Origin: Candidatus Krumholzibacteriia bacterium
Lineage (GTDB): Bacteria; Krumholzibacteriota; Krumholzibacteriia; LZORAL124-64-63
NCBI GenBank assembly: GCA_050174015.1
Contig: JBFXKG010000012.1
Coordinates: 44,622 to 108,621, forward strand
Length of the DNA stretch: 64,000 nt
Reading direction: 5' to 3'
The notes under the pieces were generated by a model that saw nothing but the letters and a program-made list of their open reading frames with translations, had not been told where the DNA came from and searched no databases. The position numbers were made by a program, and so were the translations under genes. Shown piece by piece: positions 15,494-26,160 of the stretch (positions are counted from its first letter, which is position 1; every line of letters starts with the position of its first letter).

Positions 15494-15612
15494 GCGTTTA
15501 CAGGGGTCTTTCCCGTTAGGAAGTAAACGATGTTATTTTGTTAACGAATTTTGTTTTACTTTAGTCAGGTCTCATATTGGCCACGTGGATTGGGGAATCG
15601 GAGGTGATCCCG

Positions 15613-16029
15613 GTGGCCATGCCCCCCCCGGAGCCCAAGGCGGTGCTCCACCTGAGAATCGTCCTGTGGGCGGCGGCCCTTCACTCGTTCGCCGTCGGTC
15701 TGGGCCTCATCCTGCACCCGGCGCCCGTCCTGGCCTTTTTCGGCTATGCCCCCCTGACCGAACCGTTCTTTCCCACCCAGGGGGGCGTCTTCCACGTCCT
15801 GATGGCCGTGGGCTACGCGATGGGGGCCGTCCATCCGAACCGCTTCCGGTGCCTGGTGATCTTCGCGGTCATCGTGAAGACGGCGGCCACCGTTTTCCTG
15901 CTCACCTACTGGTCCCTGGTTTCCCCCCTGTTGATCGTCCTGCTGTCCGCAGTGGGCGACGGCGTCCTCGCCGCCGCGCTGTGGTTGACGTATCGCCGCT
16001 GGCGCCGGTCCGTGCGCCTGGGAGGTTGA
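15613..16029 (+). CDS. Small integral membrane protein (about 4 TM), function unknown
   Basis: Four hydrophobic segments; GTG 15613 after GGAGG (ATG 15619 is an alternative); stop is 2 nt before the next ATG. Confidence 0.75.
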   Translation: MAMPPPEPKAVLHLRIVLWAAALHSFAVGLGLILHPAPVLAFFGYAPLTEPFFPTQGGVFHVLMAVGYAMGAVHPNRFRCLVIFAVIVKTAATVFLLTYWSLVSPLLIVLLSAVGDGVLAAALWLTYRRWRRSVRLGG

Positions 16030-16031
16030 GG

Positions 16032-17711
16032 ATGGACAAGCAGCTTCCCGGAATCGTCGTCACCGGGGCTTCGGGTTTCGTCGGCCGGCATTTCCTGGCC
16101 AGCGCGGCGGGCCGCTACCGCCTGTTCTGCCTGGCCCGGCGCTCCCGTTCGGAGGCGGGCGTTCCCGAGGATCCCAACCTGCGCTGGACCCAGGTGGACA
16201 TCGCCAAGTGGGACACCATGCGCCAGGTGGTCAACTGCGTGAAGGAGCATGGCGGGGCGGACTACGTCCTGCACCTGGCGGGATATTACGACTTCAAGTT
16301 CATGGAGCATCCGGAGTACGAGCGGACGAACGTCCTGGGGACCCGGAACGTCCTGAAGCTGGCCAAGCAGCTCGGGGTCAAGCGGTTCCTGTTCGCCAGC
16401 TCCCTGGCGGCCTGCCGTTTCCCCCCCGCCGGCGGCAGCGTGAACGAGGATTCCCCCGCCGATGCGGAATTCGCCTACGCCCGGAGCAAGCGCCAGGGGG
16501 AGGACATGGTGCGGGACAGCGCCGAGTGGTTCCCCGGCGCCATCATCCGGCTCGCGGCGGTCTTCAGCGACTGGTGCGAGTATCCGCCCCTCTACGTATT
16601 CCTCCAGACCTGGTTGGGACAGCGCTGGAACAGCCGGATCCTCGGCGGTAAGGGAAATTCCGCGGTCACCTACATCCACATCCAGGATCTGGTGAAGCTC
16701 TTCCACACGGTGATCGAGAAGAGCGATTCCCTGCCTCGGATCGGCGTCTACAACGCGAGTCCCAACTTCTGCACCAGCCACCGGGATCTCTTCCAGATCG
16801 CCACGCGCTACTACACGGGCGAGCAGGTGCGCCCGCTCTTCATGCCCCGGCGTCTGGCGGGTCCGGGCATCTATCTCCGCTGGTGGCTGGGCCGTCTGGT
16901 GGGGCGGATTCCCTTCGAGGCCCCGTGGATGACCAGGTACATCGACCGTCAGCTGGTGGTGGACGCCTCGCGGACCTACGAGGCGCTGGGCTGGAGCCCC
17001 GCGCGCCGGTCGGACATCTCCCGCAGGTTGCTCCTGATGATCGAGAACATGAAGGCCCACCGGGAGACCTGGAACCAGCGCAACGAGGCCGCCCTGCGCC
17101 GGGTGGCGCGGCGGCCGAACTTCGTCATCGCGGAGGCCCTCCAGGAGATGCGGGAGCATTGCCTCGGGCTCCTCGAGGATTTCGTGGCCGATCCAGGCCA
17201 TCGGGACCGGTTCCCCCACTACAGCCTGATGGAACCGGAAGCCATGCGGTGGTTCCTCACCTTGATCTATCAGGTCCTTTATTCCGCGGTCCAGACGCGG
17301 GACCGCCAGCTGATGCGCCACTACGCCCAGGTCATCGCGGCCAGGCGACGCCAGGAGGGTTTCGAGGCATCCGAGGTCATGGACCTGATGACTTCGGTGG
17401 GCGAGATCGTCAGCGAGGCCCTGCGCCGCAGGCGGGACCTGGAGGACCTGGGCCAGCAGATCCACGACCACGTGGTGCTCAGTTTCCAGCTGGCCATCGA
17501 CGCGGTGGAGGACGCCTACGAGACGATGGAGTCGCGTCCCCAGGAACTTGACGAGCGGCTGGGCGGGGTGGAACTCCCCACCAACGCGTCCGATCTCGAA
17601 CACATGGTCCATCAGCTCAGCGACATCTGTGACGAGGCCCTGCCTTCGCTGTACGGCGGGACGGGCCGTCCGTTGACGCGGGAACAGGTCCTGGGAAAGG
17701 GGCAGCCATGA
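16032..17711 (+). CDS. Extended SDR (NAD-dependent epimerase/dehydratase) fused to a C-terminal helical RsbRD_N/globin-like domain
   Basis: VVTGASGFVG, HLAGYY, FASSLAA, YARSK (YxxxK). C-terminal about 170 aa helical with RRRQEGFEASEV. Start set at MDKQL (16032). Confidence 0.8.
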   Translation: MDKQLPGIVVTGASGFVGRHFLASAAGRYRLFCLARRSRSEAGVPEDPNLRWTQVDIAKWDTMRQVVNCVKEHGGADYVLHLAGYYDFKFMEHPEYERTNVLGTRNVLKLAKQLGVKRFLFASSLAACRFPPAGGSVNEDSPADAEFAYARSKRQGEDMVRDSAEWFPGAIIRLAAVFSDWCEYPPLYVFLQTWLGQRWNSRILGGKGNSAVTYIHIQDLVKLFHTVIEKSDSLPRIGVYNASPNFCTSHRDLFQIATRYYTGEQVRPLFMPRRLAGPGIYLRWWLGRLVGRIPFEAPWMTRYIDRQLVVDASRTYEALGWSPARRSDISRRLLLMIENMKAHRETWNQRNEAALRRVARRPNFVIAEALQEMREHCLGLLEDFVADPGHRDRFPHYSLMEPEAMRWFLTLIYQVLYSAVQTRDRQLMRHYAQVIAARRRQEGFEASEVMDLMTSVGEIVSEALRRRRDLEDLGQQIHDHVVLSFQLAIDAVEDAYETMESRPQELDERLGGVELPTNASDLEHMVHQLSDICDEALPSLYGGTGRPLTREQVLGKGQP

Positions 17712-18181
17712 CCTCCGACAGGGATAGCAGGAAGAGCGGCTGGGAAGACCTGGCCTGGCGCAGTACGCGCTACAACGACCGGACCGTGCTCAAGTCCGGA
17801 TCGTTCCTGAACACCTTCTGCCCGCACTGCGGCGCCTCCCTCCTCCACGAGGGGATGGTGTTGCTGGAAACGGTCACGGCCGAGGGCGTGGAGGGCCGTC
17901 TGGAGCTCAGCCCCTACCTGAACGTGTTCGAGAGGCGCAGCGACATCCACATTCCCGAAGGCCAGGAGGTCAAGGACCTGCGCTGCAGCAGCTGCCACGC
18001 CTCCCTGAAGGCCGAAGGCCGGGTGTGCGGGGACGGACAGTCGGCGGTGGCCTGCGTCCTGGTGGGGATCTCGACCATCCGGGTGCCTTTCTTCTTCTGC
18101 ATGCGGGAGGGCTGCCGCTGGCAGCTCATCGACCCCGACGACGAGCACAAGATCATCCTGGACGACAGCAGGGAGTGGTAG
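17708..18181 (+). CDS. Cytoplasmic Cys-rich, putative metal-binding hypothetical protein
   Basis: CPHC, CSSC(H), C..C and CMREGC motifs; no signal peptide; ATGA overlap with the SDR gene. Confidence 0.75.
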   Translation: MTSDRDSRKSGWEDLAWRSTRYNDRTVLKSGSFLNTFCPHCGASLLHEGMVLLETVTAEGVEGRLELSPYLNVFERRSDIHIPEGQEVKDLRCSSCHASLKAEGRVCGDGQSAVACVLVGISTIRVPFFFCMREGCRWQLIDPDDEHKIILDDSREW

Positions 18182-18185
18182 ACCC

Positions 18186-18689
18186 ATGACCAATGCCCAA
18201 CCGGGACGCGGACGTGCGGTGATGCTCGCGGTGGTCACCCTGGCCCTGCTCGTCGTGGGCGCCGGGGGATACCTGCGGGAAGGCCCGGCTGATGATCCCC
18301 CCCGCTTCTATCTCCCGAATTCGGCCGGTGCGGTCCTGTTCACCCACGCGGATCACCTGGACATCGTCGGCGATTGCGAGACGTGCCACCACGAAAGCGC
18401 GGCCATGGATCCGCGCAATTGCCGGAGCTGCCACCCGGCGACGGCGGCCGAAGGCGAGCCGTTCCGCGGTTGCGGGTCCTGCCACGACGACCCGGACTAC
18501 ACGGCGGACTTCCTCGACCACGCCGGACTCCTGGAGATCGAGGAGCACGAGTGTTCCGGGTGCCACGATCCGGTGGGGGTGTCCGACGCCTATCATGCCT
18601 TGTGCAACGGTTGCCACCTGGAGAACGATCCCGACCGGTTCGCCGGTCCGGGCGGGCAGCCCCTCTGCGCGGCCTGCCATCTCAGGTAA
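18186..18689 (+). CDS. Class III (c3-type) hexaheme cytochrome c
   Basis: N-terminal anchor/signal, GAVLFTHADH class III motif, 6 CXXCH (CETCH, CRSCH, CGSCH, CSGCH, CNGCH, CAACH). Confidence 0.88.
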   Translation: MTNAQPGRGRAVMLAVVTLALLVVGAGGYLREGPADDPPRFYLPNSAGAVLFTHADHLDIVGDCETCHHESAAMDPRNCRSCHPATAAEGEPFRGCGSCHDDPDYTADFLDHAGLLEIEEHECSGCHDPVGVSDAYHALCNGCHLENDPDRFAGPGGQPLCAACHLR

Positions 18690-18706: not shown

Positions 18707-19987
18707 ATGAACCTGCTGGACATGCTCAGATCGCCGGCGCGCAGAGTTCCCGAACCGGGGGCGGCCCGTCCCGGCATCATCGACATCCCCGATCCCGACC
18801 GGGTGATCATCGCCCTGGAGTACCCGGGCAAGATCCTCTTCAGACCGGTGGTGAAGGAGGGGGACACGGTCGCCGCCAACCAGTTGATCGGCAGGTCCGG
18901 GCAGGGCAACTGCCTGCACGCTTCGATCGGGGGCACCGTGCAGGAGATCCGGCCGGTCTGGTCGGCCACCAGCGACCACGTGCCTGCGGTGGTCATCGCC
19001 CGCAGCGCGGTGCCGCCCCTTTCCCCGGAAAGGGTCCTGGCCCAGGCGGGCCTCGAATTGACGCGGGCCACGCGGGTGGAGTTGATGAAGGCCTGCGGGG
19101 TCGTCAGTCCCTGGACCACGCCGGGCCCGAACGACAGCGAGGAGGACGTCGCCCGGTATCCCGAGGTGCGGCACCTGGTGATCGTCGGGGTCAACCAGGA
19201 ACCGACCACCGTCAACTACGAGCTGCTGCTCCAGCAGGAGGTCGAGGCCGTCAAGATCGGCCTGCACCGGCTCCGGGAATTCTGCCCCCGGGTGCGCCCG
19301 CGGCTGCTGGTGGCGGCGGGCATGGCGGCCTGGGCGCGCAAGGAGCTGGGGGACTCCCTCGACATCGTGCCCCTCGGGGCGGACTACCGCAGGCGGATCA
19401 GGCGGCTGGTGATTCCGGAGCTCACCGGCGAAAAGGTGGCGGCGACCGAGGCCTTCCGGGCCCACGGGATCGCCTCGATCACCGTCGAACAGCTGCTGGC
19501 CATGGTGGATTCCCAGGCGGGCCTGCCGTTCGTCCGCAAGACGGTGTCGGTGGCGGGGGCCGGGCTGGACGGCACGGTCACCGTACGGGTCCCGGTGGGG
19601 ACGCCCGTCCGCTGGATCCTGGAACAGCTGGACCTCCCCGAACCCCGCGGCGGCCGCCTGATCATGGGCGGCCCCATGCGCGGCATGGCCCATTACACCC
19701 TCGACGCCCCGGTGAGCAAGTTCGAGAACGGGGTCTATCTGCTGGACCGTGAGCACCTGCCCTCCGAGGTGAACCTCACCTGCATCAACTGCGGGGTCTG
19801 CACCCGGACCTGCCCGGTGGGTCTGCAGGTCCACCTCCTGGGCCGGTGCGTGGAATTCGGCAGCCTGTCCGACACTCCCCGCTACCACCCCGAGGCCTGC
19901 CTGGAATGCGGCCTTTGCGCGTTCGTCTGTCCGGCGCACCGGCCCCTGGTGCAGATGATCAAGATGGCCAAGAAATACGGCGGTTGA
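18707..19987 (+). CDS. rnfC: RnfC-like subunit with a degenerate NADH/FMN-binding site
   Basis: N-terminal barrel (VKEGDTV...LHASIGGTV), SLBB region, GGPMRG, two ferredoxin motifs CINCGVCTRTCP and CLECGLCAFVCP. The GMGGAGFP motif is replaced by GVVSPWTT. Confidence 0.85.
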   Translation: MNLLDMLRSPARRVPEPGAARPGIIDIPDPDRVIIALEYPGKILFRPVVKEGDTVAANQLIGRSGQGNCLHASIGGTVQEIRPVWSATSDHVPAVVIARSAVPPLSPERVLAQAGLELTRATRVELMKACGVVSPWTTPGPNDSEEDVARYPEVRHLVIVGVNQEPTTVNYELLLQQEVEAVKIGLHRLREFCPRVRPRLLVAAGMAAWARKELGDSLDIVPLGADYRRRIRRLVIPELTGEKVAATEAFRAHGIASITVEQLLAMVDSQAGLPFVRKTVSVAGAGLDGTVTVRVPVGTPVRWILEQLDLPEPRGGRLIMGGPMRGMAHYTLDAPVSKFENGVYLLDREHLPSEVNLTCINCGVCTRTCPVGLQVHLLGRCVEFGSLSDTPRYHPEACLECGLCAFVCPAHRPLVQMIKMAKKYGG

Positions 19988-19989
19988 CC

Positions 19990-20988
19990 ATGGCGACTTC
20001 GCTCGAAAAATCCCCGTTCCTGACCTCCTCCGACTTCAACGTCGCCTCCAGTCCGCACTGGCGCGACGGCAGTTCGCTCGCCCAGATCCAGGTGCTGTGG
20101 CTCGTCGCCCTGATGCCCGCGGTCTGGGGGGCCTGGAGCCATTTCGGTCTGACGGGTGTGCGGGTCCTCTGCCTGGCCACCGCCACGGCGGTGATGTGGG
20201 ACGCCCTGGGCAACCGGATCTTCCCGGGCAAGGACCACACGACCAACCTCAGCAGCGTGACCCTGGGCCTGCTGCTGGGCCTGATCCTGCCGGTGGACGC
20301 CCCCTGGTGGCTGGTCACGGTCGGCACCTTGATGATGATCATGGTCGGCAAGAAGATGTTCGGGGGCTGGGGCGGATATCCGGTCCACCCGGTGGCGCTG
20401 AGCTACGCCATGCTCGCGGTCTCCTGGCCGGGACGACTGGACCGGACGGCGGCCCTGGCCGGGCTGGACTGGCCGGTGACCATGATCGAGCCCCTGCGCC
20501 TGGTCAAGACCCTGGGCCCGGCGGCCGAAGGGGCCTTCGCGCCCCTGGACCTGTTGCGCGGCGACCAGGTGGCGGGGGTGGGGGACGGGATGGTGATCCA
20601 CCTCGCCGCCGGCGGCCTTCTGCTGGTCCTGCTGCGCCAGGTTCCCTGGCAGATCCCGGTGGGGACGCTGCTGGGAACCGCGGGTACCGCGGCGGCCCTC
20701 GCCTGGCTGACCCCGGACAGGGTGGCGTCGGCCCAGTTCCATCTGCTGACCGGGGGCACGGTCCTCATGGCGTTCTTCCTGCTGGCCGAGCACACGACCT
20801 CCCCGGTGAACGCCCGACCGATGCTGCTCTACGGGCTGCTGGCGGGGTTGCTGATGGTCCTCATCCGCACCTTCAGCAGCCACGTCGACGGGGGCATGTT
20901 CGCGCTCCTGCTGGTGAACCTGTGTTCCCCCCTGCTGGACCGCTGGGTTCCCCGTCTCAAGGGTTTGGAGGTGGGAAGCGATGCGTGA
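19990..20988 (+). CDS. rnfD: RnfD-like membrane subunit lacking the FMN-carrying Thr
   Basis: SSPHWR, GKKMFGGWG...HPVA, AEHTTSP, FALLLVNL; VTMIEPL where RnfD has (S/T)GATPL. Confidence 0.88.
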   Translation: MATSLEKSPFLTSSDFNVASSPHWRDGSSLAQIQVLWLVALMPAVWGAWSHFGLTGVRVLCLATATAVMWDALGNRIFPGKDHTTNLSSVTLGLLLGLILPVDAPWWLVTVGTLMMIMVGKKMFGGWGGYPVHPVALSYAMLAVSWPGRLDRTAALAGLDWPVTMIEPLRLVKTLGPAAEGAFAPLDLLRGDQVAGVGDGMVIHLAAGGLLLVLLRQVPWQIPVGTLLGTAGTAAALAWLTPDRVASAQFHLLTGGTVLMAFFLLAEHTTSPVNARPMLLYGLLAGLLMVLIRTFSSHVDGGMFALLLVNLCSPLLDRWVPRLKGLEVGSDA

Positions 20989-21568
20989 CATCGGCCGTCT
21001 CGTCCTGGTTCTGGTGGCGATCTGCTCGCTCAGCGCAGCCTCCCTGTCCTACGTGAGGACGTCGCTGGCGACCCGGATCGAACAGCAGGGCGACTACTAC
21101 GTCAGGGGACCGGCCCTGGCCCGGCTGTTCCAGCAGCCGGCTTCCCAGCTGCTGGCCAACAAGGTCAAGATCACCAGGGATGGGATCGAGTATCCGGTCT
21201 TTTTCCGGAAGGACGGGGAGCAGGTCACCGGTCTCGCGGTGGAAGCCTCCGGCCAGGGAGGCTACGGCGGTCCCATCGTGATGATGATCGGGATCGATCT
21301 GGCCACCGACACGGTCCTGGGCGTGGAGATCGTCTTCCACAGCGAGACCCCCGGCCTGGGCGCCCAGGTCGAGAAGGCCGGGTTCCGGCAGCAATGGGTC
21401 GGGCTTCCCCTGGGGTCGTCCGTGGCCCTCGCCGGGTCCGGAGGGTCGGTGGACGCCATCACCGGGGCGACCTTCTCCTCCAGCGCCATGGTGGACGGAA
21501 CGAACCAGGTCCTTGACCTGATGAACACGAACAGGGCAGCCATTCTGGCCGAGATCGCCGGTCGCTGA
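20981..21568 (+). CDS. rnfG: RnfG periplasmic FMN-binding subunit
   Basis: N-terminal anchor, GYGGPI, HSETPGLG, covalent-FMN motif DAITGATFSS intact. Confidence 0.92.
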   Translation: MRDIGRLVLVLVAICSLSAASLSYVRTSLATRIEQQGDYYVRGPALARLFQQPASQLLANKVKITRDGIEYPVFFRKDGEQVTGLAVEASGQGGYGGPIVMMIGIDLATDTVLGVEIVFHSETPGLGAQVEKAGFRQQWVGLPLGSSVALAGSGGSVDAITGATFSSSAMVDGTNQVLDLMNTNRAAILAEIAGR

Positions 21569-21593: not shown

Positions 21594-22205
21594 ATGGATT
21601 TCAAGCAGGCGTTGACCCACGGTTTCTGGCGCGACCTGCCGCCTTTCCGCCTGGTGCTGGGGCTGTGCCCCTCGCTCGCGGTGACCGCCGCGGCGGAGAA
21701 CGGTTTGGGCATGGGGCTGGCGGTCACCTTCGTGCTGATCTTCAGCAACATGTTCATCTCGCTGCTGCGCCGGGTGATCCCCGACAAGGTGAGGATCGCC
21801 AGCTACATCGTCGTCATCGCCACCCTGGTGGTTCTGGTGGAGCTGAGCATGAAGGCCTTCTTCTTCCCGCTCTCGCAGCAGCTCGGCATCTACATCCCCC
21901 TGATCGTGGTGAACTGCATCATCCTGGGACGGGCCGAGGCCTTCGCCAGCCGCAACCCGGTGCTGATCTCCATGGCCGACGGCCTGAGCGTGGGCCTGGG
22001 CTTCACCGTTTCGTTGACCCTGGTGGGATCGCTGCGGGAGATCCTGGGCTCGGGCACCTGGTTCGGGATGGGACTTTTCGGTCCGGGCTTCGAGCCGTTC
22101 GGTTTCATGGTCAAGGCCCCGGGCGCCTTCCTCTGCCTGGGGGTGCTGCTGGGGCTCATGAACGCGTGGAGCCGCCGCCGCGGGGAAATCTTCGTCCAGA
22201 CCTGA
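21594..22205 (+). CDS. rnfE: RnfE membrane subunit
   Basis: LGLCPSLAVT, IYIPLIVVNCIILGRAE, PGAFL. Confidence 0.95.
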   Translation: MDFKQALTHGFWRDLPPFRLVLGLCPSLAVTAAAENGLGMGLAVTFVLIFSNMFISLLRRVIPDKVRIASYIVVIATLVVLVELSMKAFFFPLSQQLGIYIPLIVVNCIILGRAEAFASRNPVLISMADGLSVGLGFTVSLTLVGSLREILGSGTWFGMGLFGPGFEPFGFMVKAPGAFLCLGVLLGLMNAWSRRRGEIFVQT

Positions 22206-22217
22206 GGAGCGTGACTC

Positions 22218-22793
22218 GTGGATCTGATCATCCTGGCCGTCGGGGCCATCTTCGTGCAGAACATCCTGCTCGCGCAGTACCTGGGCAACTGCCCGTTCTG
22301 CGGCGTCTCCAAGAAGACGGGGACCGCCGTCGGCATGGGGGTCGCGGTGATCTTCGTGGCCACCCTGGCCTCGATCTTCACGTGGCTGGCCTATTACCTG
22401 CTCCTGGTGCCGCGCCACCTGGAGTACCTGCAGACCATGGTCTTCATCCTCATCATCGCCGCCCTGGTCCAGCTGGTGGAGATCTTCCTGAAGAAGCAGA
22501 GCAGGACCCTGTACGACGCCCTGGGCATCTACCTGCCCTTGATCACGACCAACTGCGCCGTGATGGGCATCGCCCTGCTGAACATCAAGCACGGGTTCGG
22601 TTTCGTGGAGATGGTGGTGTATTCCGCGGCGAGCGCGGCGGGATTCGCCCTGGCGATCATCCTGTTCGCAGGAGTGCGGGAGCGGATGTTCCTGGCGCCC
22701 GTCCCCAAGGCGATGCGCGGCACCGCCATCGCCCTGGTCACGGCCGGGATCATGTCGCTCGCGTTCATGGGGTTCGCGGGCATGGGCAAGTAG
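22218..22793 (+). CDS. rnfA: RnfA membrane subunit
   Basis: YLGNCPF, LGIYLPLITTNCAVMG, GVRER; GTG start after GAGGAG. Confidence 0.95.
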   Translation: MDLIILAVGAIFVQNILLAQYLGNCPFCGVSKKTGTAVGMGVAVIFVATLASIFTWLAYYLLLVPRHLEYLQTMVFILIIAALVQLVEIFLKKQSRTLYDALGIYLPLITTNCAVMGIALLNIKHGFGFVEMVVYSAASAAGFALAIILFAGVRERMFLAPVPKAMRGTAIALVTAGIMSLAFMGFAGMGK

Positions 22794-24909: not shown

Positions 24910-25986
24910 TCAGGAACCGGCGCCCGTCCTCAGGCGGTAGCGGTCCGCGTAGCCGGGCAGGACGGCGATCCTGCCGGCGAGGCCCGGGGTGGGGATGACG
25001 TCGATCTCGCCGGGGCCGGGACCGGGCACGACGAAGACGGCTTCGACTCCGGGGTGGTGGCGGGCGAGCAGCAGCGCCCCCTGCTCGGGCCCCAGGATGA
25101 ACAGGGTCGTCGAGAGCCCGTCGGCGAGGATCCCCGTGGGGGCGATGACGGTCGCGCTGAGGGTCCCGGCGGCCGGGCTGCCGGTGGCGGGATTCATGAT
25201 GTGACCGTACCGCACGCCGTCGATGGTCACGAACTTCTCGTAGGATCCGCTGGTCGCCACGGCCGCGTTCGAGACGGTGACGGTGGCGAAGATCCGGGTC
25301 TTGTCCAGGGGATCCTTGATCCCCACCCGCCAGTCGGCCCGGCCAGGCGCCCCGCCCAGGCAGAAGAGGTTTCCCCCCAGGTCGATCAGGCCGCCCTTGA
25401 CCCCTGCGGCGCGCAGGCGGGCGACGGCCAGATCCACGGCCAGGCCCTTGGCGATCCCGCCCAGATCGAACCGGGTCCCCCCCGATTCCTTGACCACGGC
25501 CCGCCCCTCCTGGACGAAGCGCCAGCGTCCCAGGAGGGCCCGGGCCGAGTCCACGGCCGCCGCACCCGGCAGGACCCCCCGCTTCCGGTGGAATCCCCAC
25601 AGGTCCAGCAGGGCGCCGGCGGTGGGGTCGAAGGCCCCGCCGCTCTGTTCTCCCAGCTGCCGGGACAGTTCCAGGCAACGGCCCAGCCAGGGCGATACGG
25701 CGACGGCGGAGTCCGCGGGGGCGCGGTTCAGGCGGCTGATCGCGGAATCCGGGCGCCGGATGCTCAGCTCCGACTCCAGGGAATCGTACACCGCCTGCAC
25801 CAGGGCCTCGGCCCGGGAGGCATCCAGCCCCGGGGGCAGCTCGAGGGAACAGGCGGCCACCGTCCCCATGCTGGCGAATTCGAAACTGCCCGAGGCGGGG
25901 CCGGGCGAGGATGAGCGGCAAGCCGGAAGGGCGGCCAGGAGGGGAACCAGGAACATGGCGGGAATCCGCAGGGTTCGGCTGATCAT
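24910..25986 (-). CDS. apbE: ApbE/Ftp FAD:protein FMN transferase (lipoprotein)
   Basis: SMGT, FDPTAG, DLGGIAKGLAVD, LGGN, ATSGSYE, GHIMNP, ADGLST; lipobox ALPA-C; start set at MISRT; stop abuts the rnfB stop (TGATCA). Confidence 0.92.
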   Translation of the reverse strand: MISRTLRIPAMFLVPLLAALPACRSSSPGPASGSFEFASMGTVAACSLELPPGLDASRAEALVQAVYDSLESELSIRRPDSAISRLNRAPADSAVAVSPWLGRCLELSRQLGEQSGGAFDPTAGALLDLWGFHRKRGVLPGAAAVDSARALLGRWRFVQEGRAVVKESGGTRFDLGGIAKGLAVDLAVARLRAAGVKGGLIDLGGNLFCLGGAPGRADWRVGIKDPLDKTRIFATVTVSNAAVATSGSYEKFVTIDGVRYGHIMNPATGSPAAGTLSATVIAPTGILADGLSTTLFILGPEQGALLLARHHPGVEAVFVVPGPGPGEIDVIPTPGLAGRIAVLPGYADRYRLRTGAGS

Positions 25987-26160
25987 CGGATCCTTCCCGG
26001 TCGGTTCTCGGGACCTGGCAAGGCGAGCTTCCCCCAAGATATCCCTCCGGATCACGAGATCAAATCGTGAGGATTCGTTGCGGGCGCCCAGGAAGCATAC
26101 TAAAATGATATGGTTTAAGAAATATGATTCTCATTTTCGCCGAACGGGAGCGCGCCGCTG

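Follow-up and report, generated by a model that had tools for sequence, protein, structure and literature searches.

What becomes of an Rnf complex whose RnfD subunit has lost the threonine that carries its covalent flavin mononucleotide (FMN)? The question is raised by a 64,000-nucleotide stretch of a Candidatus Krumholzibacteriia bacterium genome (GenBank assembly GCA_050174015.1, contig JBFXKG010000012.1, positions 44,622 to 108,621 of the forward strand), here called the window, all positions being counted from its first letter. An rnfCDGEAB cluster in the window holds, between rnfC and rnfG, an rnfD gene for which an earlier note, made by reading the letters, had claimed that the FMN threonine is replaced by glutamate, that RnfG of the same operon keeps its own TGAT motif, and that the loss is specific to RnfD and would break the electron path from RnfG through RnfD to RnfC. 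The replacement stands. It is, moreover, a fixed trait of a large, old, monophyletic and multi-phylum clade of RnfD proteins under purifying selection, and it comes together with changes in the neighbouring subunits, from which we argue that the path was probably retired and replaced rather than broken.

Glutamate at the flavin-bearing position of RnfD

The segment at 20461-20505 encodes residues G158-K173 of RnfD, GLDWPVTMIEPLRLVK, and contains the GAG codon of Glu167. A phmmer search of the window RnfD against all PDB chains matched the three solved RnfD proteins and NqrB. In this search, 'ldwpvtmiepl' aligned with 'tD-tvtTATPL' of Acetobacterium woodii RnfD (9eri_D) and with 'LDG-VTTATPL' of Clostridium tetanomorphum RnfD (7zc6_D), an alignment that places Glu167 opposite T156 and T153, the residues that carry FMN through a phosphoester bond in A. 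woodii (PMC11889175) and C. tetanomorphum (PMC9588780), respectively. In a MAFFT L-INS-i alignment, the same column holds Thr in 59/59 canonical RnfD sequences (relatives of the genome's own canonical RnfD), whereas the 69 relatives of the window RnfD have Glu (61), Tyr (4), Ala (2) or Asp (2) and never Ser or Thr. The register is taken from four alignments in agreement, two by phmmer and two by MAFFT L-INS-i; an automatic MAFFT run put the ATGATPL of the canonical paralogue outside the Glu column, and the placement of that row was left unused, L-INS-i and phmmer being relied on. The reading of AGVGDGM as the G..GE(T/S) segment, also put forward in the earlier note, proved correct as well: it aligns with 'GCIGETS' and sets Asp199 on C. 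tetanomorphum E185.

Known substrates of the flavin transferase ApbE share the context D-x-x-[ST]-G-A-[ST] (PMC8238504, PMC12052999). A scan of the whole window RnfD found this recognition motif nowhere, nor any [ST][GAS][AS][ST], and RnfD is, as judged from its sequence, not flavinylatable at the canonical site. In the structural model described below, Glu167 lies immediately N-terminal to helix 168-175. It is co-conserved with Arg170, Asp151 and Thr153, and is most likely structural, either capping this helix or pairing with the co-conserved Arg170 or with Arg149.

The changes extend to the surroundings of the lost flavin. Pocket residues were mapped through the phmmer alignments onto the contacts of C. 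tetanomorphum RnfD (PMC9588780); besides Tyr139 and Asp199 (table 1), Asn90 of that protein corresponds to Ile99 in the window RnfD (Met or Leu in relatives), and Ser284, which is bonded to N5, to Met303 (Val, Ile or Ala in relatives). At the position of Asp199, 61 relatives have Asn (30), Asp (13) or Glu (10), whereas Glu occupies it in 59/59 canonical RnfD; Glu is found there in 2 of the 28 representatives of the clade defined below versus 73 of 94 outside it. Several of the replacements in the FMN pocket are bulky hydrophobic or aromatic residues, a pattern such as would be expected if an emptied pocket were filled. On the cytoplasmic side, the riboflavin site has changed less than the FMN pocket and keeps its polar (His133) and acidic (Glu267) character; at the former position, the N123A variant of A. 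woodii RnfD is inactive (PMC11889175). Residues 133 and 267 pair as H/E, H/D or Q/D and never as Q/E, which follows phylogeny and is uninformative. One idea is that His133, His268 and His298, all specific to the clade, may form a new, candidate cofactor site.

The gene that carries these changes is functional and under purifying selection, since the ratio of non-synonymous to synonymous substitution rates (dN/dS) between it and a 96% identical relative (locus L008) is 0.15 and its product takes a confident RnfD fold. PF03116 is the sole Pfam domain, matched with 230 bits (cut-off 27.7) over profile positions 2-290 of 296. The AlphaFold2 model (predicted local distance difference test, pLDDT, 86; predicted template modelling score, pTM, 0.85) has the ten-helix RnfD/NqrB fold, with Foldseek template modelling (TM) scores of 0.80-0.87 against 8ahx_D, 9eri_D and 7zc6_D and of 0.75-0.79, normalized to the query, against NqrB; the next fold, found in urea and ammonium transporters, scores about 0.4. 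An alignment of 40 RnfD sequences retains 39 invariant columns. The N-terminal SPH arm motif is conserved, and in solved structures the SPH arm of RnfD docks into RnfC (PMC9588780).

A multi-phylum clade and its operon

A word-indexed search returned 74 homologues, 66 of them with Glu at the site in a conserved (I/V)EP(L/M)RLVKT(L)G block, and the farthest with Asp, Tyr or Ala. When a library clustered at 50% identity was scanned in full with HMMER, 4538 family members were found. A tree was built from 121 full-length top hits after removal of the linker columns; it places the window RnfD in a clade that has 28 representatives and an SH-like (Shimodaira–Hasegawa-like) support of 99%. The pattern [ST]x[AS][ST] ending at the site is present in 0/28 of these representatives versus 75/94 of the sequences outside. 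An ApbE motif is found in 0/28 of the clade and in 64/94 of the rest. Five clade members with Thr or Ser in the column read AQT, SET, VLT, AET and GLS, which are non-ApbE contexts, and the residues seen at the FMN-Thr position across the wider clade are E, Y, D, A, L, P and F. A scan of one genome per species gave 57 loci of the Glu subclade, making 61 sequences with three further copies. Glu167 and Pro168 are present in 61/61 of the related genome loci, the site reading (I/V)-E-P, and chance is thereby excluded as the cause of Glu167.

Carriers are found in Krumholzibacteriia, Gemmatimonadales, Zixibacteria, Calditrichota, Thermoanaerobaculales, metagenome-assembled genomes (MAGs) labelled Fibrobacteraceae, Desulfocapsaceae/Desulfobulbaceae and Geopsychrobacteraceae, and include the cultured Desulfopila aestuarii DSM 18488, Desulfofustis glycolicus DSM 9705 and Desulfosediminicola flagellatus IMCC35005.

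All window proteins were compared with the open reading frames of 83 fetched loci. Gene order is shared by all complete Glu-subclade loci: a Cys-rich 157-amino-acid (aa) protein, a cytochrome (4-10 CxxCH motifs), a stripped RnfC, the Thr-less RnfD, an RnfG with D-x-x-[ST]-G-A-[ST], RnfE, RnfA and the RnfB fusion, the last at full length in all of them. This linked architecture recurs in about 57 loci from at least seven phylum-level lineages, and the distant Tyr/Asp variants (loci L084/L085, L086 and L007, the last from Pseudodesulfovibrio sp. F-1) have the same core of cytochrome c, RnfC-like protein, RnfD, RnfG, RnfE, RnfA and large RnfB. Canonical controls from the same scan (Acetobacterium and Lachnospiraceae/Eubacteriaceae loci) have the Thr, GLGGA.F, NGAECEP, a short RnfB and no cytochrome match. 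Loss in RnfD thus always co-occurs with a stripped RnfC, an RnfB fusion and a multihaem cytochrome c.

Among the partners (table 1), the window RnfC aligns over its full length with A. woodii RnfC (9eri_C), with VVSPWTTPGP in place of GLGGATFP and VGVNQEP in place of NGAECEP; its eight 4Fe-4S cysteines are 100% conserved in 57 sequences. No complete related locus is without the cytochrome, and conservation of its six CxxCH motifs is 93-100% over 56 sequences. In RnfG, DAITGAT aligns on the FMN Thr of 7zc6_G and 9eri_G, so that the claim of a subunit-specific loss is upheld, the RnfG site being kept in every complete related locus. The 157-aa Cys-rich protein occurs in nearly all Glu-subclade loci, across phyla, with seven cysteines (C38, C41, C93, C96, C107, C131, C136) 100% conserved in 54 sequences, and may serve the complex as an Fe-S or Zn partner. 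The apbE gene adjoins the operon in a minority of related loci only.

Table 1. Genes of the rnf locus and key residues of its RnfD, in window coordinates (Aw, A. woodii; Ct, C. tetanomorphum; Vc, Vibrio cholerae).
Feature	Positions	Strand	Evidence or remark
157-aa Cys-rich protein, head of cytochrome-rnf block, cytoplasmic-looking	17708..18181	+	weak DZR (double-zinc-ribbon) Pfam match
Hexahaem cytochrome c (c7/c3-like), N-terminal signal or anchor	18186..18689	+	PF14522; directly upstream of rnfC
rnfC-like (426 aa), RnfC fold, no NADH/FMN loops, two 4Fe-4S motifs	18707..19987	+	Pfam: RnfC_N and Fer4 only
rnfD (332 aa), Rnf2-type, no covalent-FMN site	19990..20988	+	start ATG 19990
RnfD His133, at Asn hydrogen-bonding riboflavin (Aw N123, Ct N124)	20386..20388	+	H 33, Q 28 of 61 relatives
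RnfD Tyr139, at Arg beside FMN isoalloxazine ring (Ct R130)	20404..20406	+	Arg in 0/28 clade, 70/94 outside
RnfD Glu167 (GAG), at flavinylated-Thr position (Ct T153, Aw T156, Vc NqrB T236)	20488..20490	+	phmmer and MAFFT L-INS-i
RnfD Asp199, at Glu of G..GE(T/S) (Ct E185, near FMN ring)	20584..20586	+	phmmer alignment
RnfD Glu267, at Asp of riboflavin site (Aw D249, Ct D248)	20788..20790	+	acidic kept: D/E in 28/28 clade, 94/94 others
rnfG, ApbE site DAITGAT intact (Thr164, 21470-21472)	20981..21568	+	PF04205; motif kept in all complete related loci
rnfE, both intramembrane 2Fe-2S Cys kept	21594..22205	+	PF02508; C25, C108 100% in 57 sequences
rnfA, both intramembrane 2Fe-2S Cys kept	22218..22793	+	PF02508; C25, C113 100% conserved
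rnfB fused to GltD/NfnB-like module, 699 aa	22810..24909	+	FeS, Fer4, Fer4_20, Pyr_redox_2 matches
apbE flavin transferase, convergent with operon	24910..26055	-	PF02424, 257 bits

An operon of this kind has a described counterpart in Rnf2, the Rnf of Desulfobacula toluolica Tol2 type of Desulfobacteraceae, which has an NAD-binding RnfB of about 700 aa, an RnfC from which the NADH/FMN and SLBB domains are missing, and a cytochrome c3 encoded in the cluster (PMC5109826; PMC11887813). Rnf2 is reported to be abundant, constitutively formed and core in marine sulfate reducers (PMC11887813) and coexists with the A. woodii-type Rnf1 in some genomes (PMC5109826; PMC11887813); how it works has, according to the literature, yet to be verified by experiment (PMC5109826). 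The window operon is of the Rnf2 type, having all three defining features, an assignment made by shared architecture and not via a named Tol2 sequence: a pyridine-nucleotide oxidoreductase domain is part of its 699-aa RnfB, Complex1_51K and SLBB domains are absent from its RnfC, and a cytochrome c gene belongs to the cluster, with a canonical Rnf in the same genome as a further likeness. Cluster look-ups for Desulfobacteraceae members of the clade yielded Pseudodesulfovibrio, Desulfofustis and MAGs only. It differs in its lineage, which is not of the Desulfobacterota, in the hexahaem cytochrome and in extra upstream genes (for the Cys-rich protein, a fusion with a short-chain dehydrogenase/reductase, SDR, and a four-transmembrane protein). 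The remaining Rnf2 subunits are called 'very similar' in the supplement of PMC11887813. Loss of the RnfD flavin site is not mentioned in the Rnf2 literature that could be searched, which did not extend to articles behind a subscription (the original Tol2 genome paper among them), and this loss appears to be an unremarked general property of the Rnf2 type.

The second rnf operon of the genome, on another contig, is canonical (RnfC with GLGGATFP and NGAECEP, RnfD with DAATGATPL, RnfG with DAVTGAT). The cell therefore has both Rnf types, and the canonical operon can cover ferredoxin:NAD+ exchange. Rnf2-type rnfD is patchy among relatives of the window genome (2/7 species of the genus, 3/19 genomes of the family), a distribution suggesting that the Rnf2-type operon is an accessory and probably transferred module. 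Even in other phyla, Rnf2-type RnfD copies share 58-63% identity, suggestive of a module that has spread horizontally.

Some observations on individual loci may be added. The four-transmembrane and SDR-fusion proteins (window 15577-17711) travel with the operon in non-Desulfobacterota carriers (L004, L009-L012, L014, L026, L027, L038, L052, L055-L057, L062, L067), lying upstream in some loci, the window included, and downstream of rnfB in others; they were not found beside the operon in Desulfobulbales or Geopsychrobacteraceae loci. In the Desulfobulbales/Geopsychrobacteraceae copies (L017, L019, L020, L022, L024, L025 and the majority of other Desulfobulbales loci), the RnfG motif is D-x-I-S-G-A-S, so that Ser instead of Thr is predicted to be flavinylated. 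The ApbE encoded in the window has a lipoprotein-like N-terminus (LAALPAC) downstream of its annotated GTG start, and its true start is probably an internal Met (MISRTLRIP…). A fragmentary second operon on a second contig of Desulfofustis sp. PB-SRB1 (L080; RnfD 163-281, RnfC 249-395, partial RnfA and RnfB) is either a decayed duplicate or a misassembly. Seven Bacillota MAG loci (L070, L071, L073, L075-L078) have rnfC-rnfD-rnfE-rnfA clusters with no RnfG or RnfB match and an RnfD site reading DAVSSPTVL, with Pro for the usual Ala before Thr; they may represent another reduced Rnf variant. A distant Thr-less RnfD-like gene has an RnfE-like gene as its only Rnf neighbour in L081-L083 (Candidatus Fimenecus and a Clostridia MAG), where the other Rnf genes gave no match.

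Possible electron paths

At a probability of about 0.6, we favour an Rnf2-type complex with an FMN-less RnfD and a retired return path, in which NAD(P)H or ferredoxin exchanges electrons with the periplasmic cytochrome. RnfD, we infer, would carry no FMN on its periplasmic side; the return leg from RnfG-FMN through RnfD-FMN, riboflavin and RnfC to NAD+ would no longer run, and the pyridine-nucleotide site would have moved onto RnfB. The electron route would link RnfB::GltD, where cytoplasmic NAD(P)H or ferredoxin reacts, with the hexahaem cytochrome, the putative periplasmic partner of RnfG-FMN, by way of the RnfB Fe-S chain, the 2Fe-2S cluster of RnfA/E and RnfG-FMN, with ion translocation placed at RnfA/E. 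RnfD and RnfC would persist as a scaffold for the cytoplasmic modules, and may keep the cytoplasm-side riboflavin and a 4Fe-4S relay. The outward half of the path is intact, as the RnfA/E cysteines (100%), the RnfG motif and the haem motifs of the cytochrome are all kept. In A. woodii, the Na+ path is assigned to RnfA/E and coupled to the passage of electrons from RnfB to RnfG-FMN by way of the 2Fe-2S cluster, RnfD serving electron transfer only (PMC11889175).

We call the path retired and replaced, rather than broken, because RnfC has lost its NADH/FMN site, RnfB has gained an NAD(P)H module and a cytochrome has joined. Of the claim that the loss breaks the path from RnfG through RnfD to RnfC, the disappearance of the threonine and of its motif stands, but this is the fixed state of a rewired clade, not a lesion in a canonical Rnf. 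Several points nevertheless weigh against the favoured explanation. The loss of FMN from RnfD is itself read from the amino acid sequence; all eight 4Fe-4S cysteines of RnfC are fully conserved; the riboflavin-site acid is universally kept (122/122 representatives) and its partner stays polar (Asn, His or Gln); and neither rnfC nor rnfD is missing from any lineage among the related loci compared. If RnfC and RnfD formed a purely structural pair, the kept clusters and acid would be superfluous, and some electron path may therefore persist.

These same features, together with the conserved SPH arm motif, speak for a distinctly less probable explanation, namely that a flavin is still bound to RnfD, without a covalent link, at or close to the former FMN pocket, and that the U-shaped path feeds the RnfC clusters and then a new cytoplasmic partner. 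The flavin could be riboflavin or FMN, with Glu167 in place of the phospho-threonine bond, or else the FMN of RnfG could swing in, and the partner could be ferredoxin, the 157-aa Cys-rich protein or the GltD-like flavin adenine dinucleotide (FAD). A precedent has been proposed in a two-subunit system, where covalent RnfG-type FMN would sample a Thr-less RnfD-like site (10.1101/2024.03.13.584918). However, the FMN pocket has lost four more polar residues, for the most part to hydrophobic or aromatic ones, and a Thr-to-Tyr change in the Na+-translocating NADH:quinone oxidoreductase (Na+-NQR) leaves the site empty (PMC12901251). Nor is Glu a general flavin ligand, since the residue at the site varies across the wider clade. 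An unlikely further possibility is that Rnf2 is a membrane-bound enzyme of flavin-based electron bifurcation or confurcation. NADPH electrons would be split at the NfnB-like FAD of RnfB; one would leave via RnfB, RnfA/E and RnfG-FMN for the high-potential periplasmic cytochrome, and the other would reach ferredoxin over a low-potential cytoplasm-side branch in which the conserved 4Fe-4S clusters of RnfC, and perhaps the riboflavin of RnfD, are put to new use. The FMN loss from RnfD would then insulate the two branches.

It is very improbable that another hydroxyl residue of RnfD is flavinylated instead. Thr153 is present in 61/61 relatives and lies in the same periplasmic linker as Glu167, and Thr164, in PVTM, is only three residues upstream of it; the earlier note had itself pointed to this VT as a possible substitute. 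However, Thr164 is K, S, A or V in 19/61 relatives, and neither threonine has the motif context common to ApbE substrates. The single D..[ST]..[ST] match in RnfD, DHTTNLS (82-88), is without the G-A core, and its Ser88 is conserved in canonical RnfD too. All three residues were rejected as alternative flavinylation sites for want of motif or conservation. As for an alignment artefact, a sequencing error or the decay of a redundant paralogue, the presence of a canonical rnf operon in the same genome and the misplacement of one canonical sequence by automatic MAFFT might invite such an explanation, but it can practically be dismissed: four alignments agree, Glu stands at the same codon position in 61 loci from many assemblies, and the gene has an open frame and a confident fold. 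Pseudogene decay, in particular, was rejected on the dN/dS value.

Related systems and the site of ion pumping

Compared with canonical RnfD and NqrB (7zc6_D, 9eri_D, 8ahx_D and V. cholerae NqrB), the window RnfD shares the Pfam family, the ten-helix fold, the operon position, the SPH arm and the riboflavin-site acid. It differs in lacking the Thr and its ApbE motif, in the replacement of the pocket Arg, Glu, Asn and Ser, and in the change of the riboflavin Asn to His. On the input side, a parallel exists in Na+-NQR, in which the NADH site belongs to NqrF and the homologue of RnfC, NqrA, has no cofactor; the output differs, being cytochrome c instead of quinone in the window Rnf.

A laboratory equivalent of the replacement is V. 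cholerae NqrB-T236Y (9ud3, 9ud4), in which FMN and electron flow are lost and the site is empty, in a complex of wild-type-like structure (PMC12901251). The mutant shares with the window RnfD the replacement of the Thr that bears the flavin, and its complex can still assemble. Tyr is also found at the former FMN-Thr position in some natural Rnf2-type RnfD (L084/L085 7001-7969, L086 7001-7981, P0200, P0210), which is the same swap. The mutant has a disrupted flow, however, whereas the change in the window is natural and ancient and comes with rewired input and output modules.

In the literature searched, loss of the Thr in an RnfD-like protein is reported only for two-subunit Nqr/Rnf-like systems (10.1101/2024.03.13.584918). 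In these, an NqrB/RnfD-like subunit without the flavinylation Thr is paired with a flavinylated RnfG/NqrC-like subunit, and one-way export from NAD(P)H has been proposed (PMC8238504; 10.1101/2024.03.13.584918). They differ from the window Rnf in that a PF00175 NAD-binding domain is C-terminal on the RnfD-like protein and RnfA, RnfE, RnfB and RnfC are absent, whereas the window has all six rnf genes, an RnfD with PF03116 only and the NAD(P)H module on RnfB. The Rnf of Methanosarcina acetivorans does not use NAD(P), and its RnfG is the proposed donor to a co-transcribed multihaem cytochrome c, MmcA (PMC4023990; PMC12174285). It resembles the window Rnf in this cytochrome and in an RnfC without NAD(P) use but with two 4Fe-4S clusters, and differs in being archaeal, in having an ordinary RnfB without flavoprotein fusion, and in its acceptor, methanophenazine.

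These results extend Rnf2-type complexes to Krumholzibacteriia, Gemmatimonadales, Zixibacteria, Calditrichota and other uncultured lineages. Because all of them are without the covalent-FMN site of RnfD, the textbook U-shaped electron path is inapplicable to them as drawn, and models of Rnf2 as a ferredoxin:NAD+ pump need revision. The site of ion pumping is disputed, being placed either in RnfD/NqrB (PMC9588780) or in RnfA/E (PMC11889175). Rnf2-type complexes are a natural experiment for this dispute, as pumping without an RnfD FMN, if true, would favour RnfA/E, and the existence of cultured carriers makes a test of the pumping site feasible.

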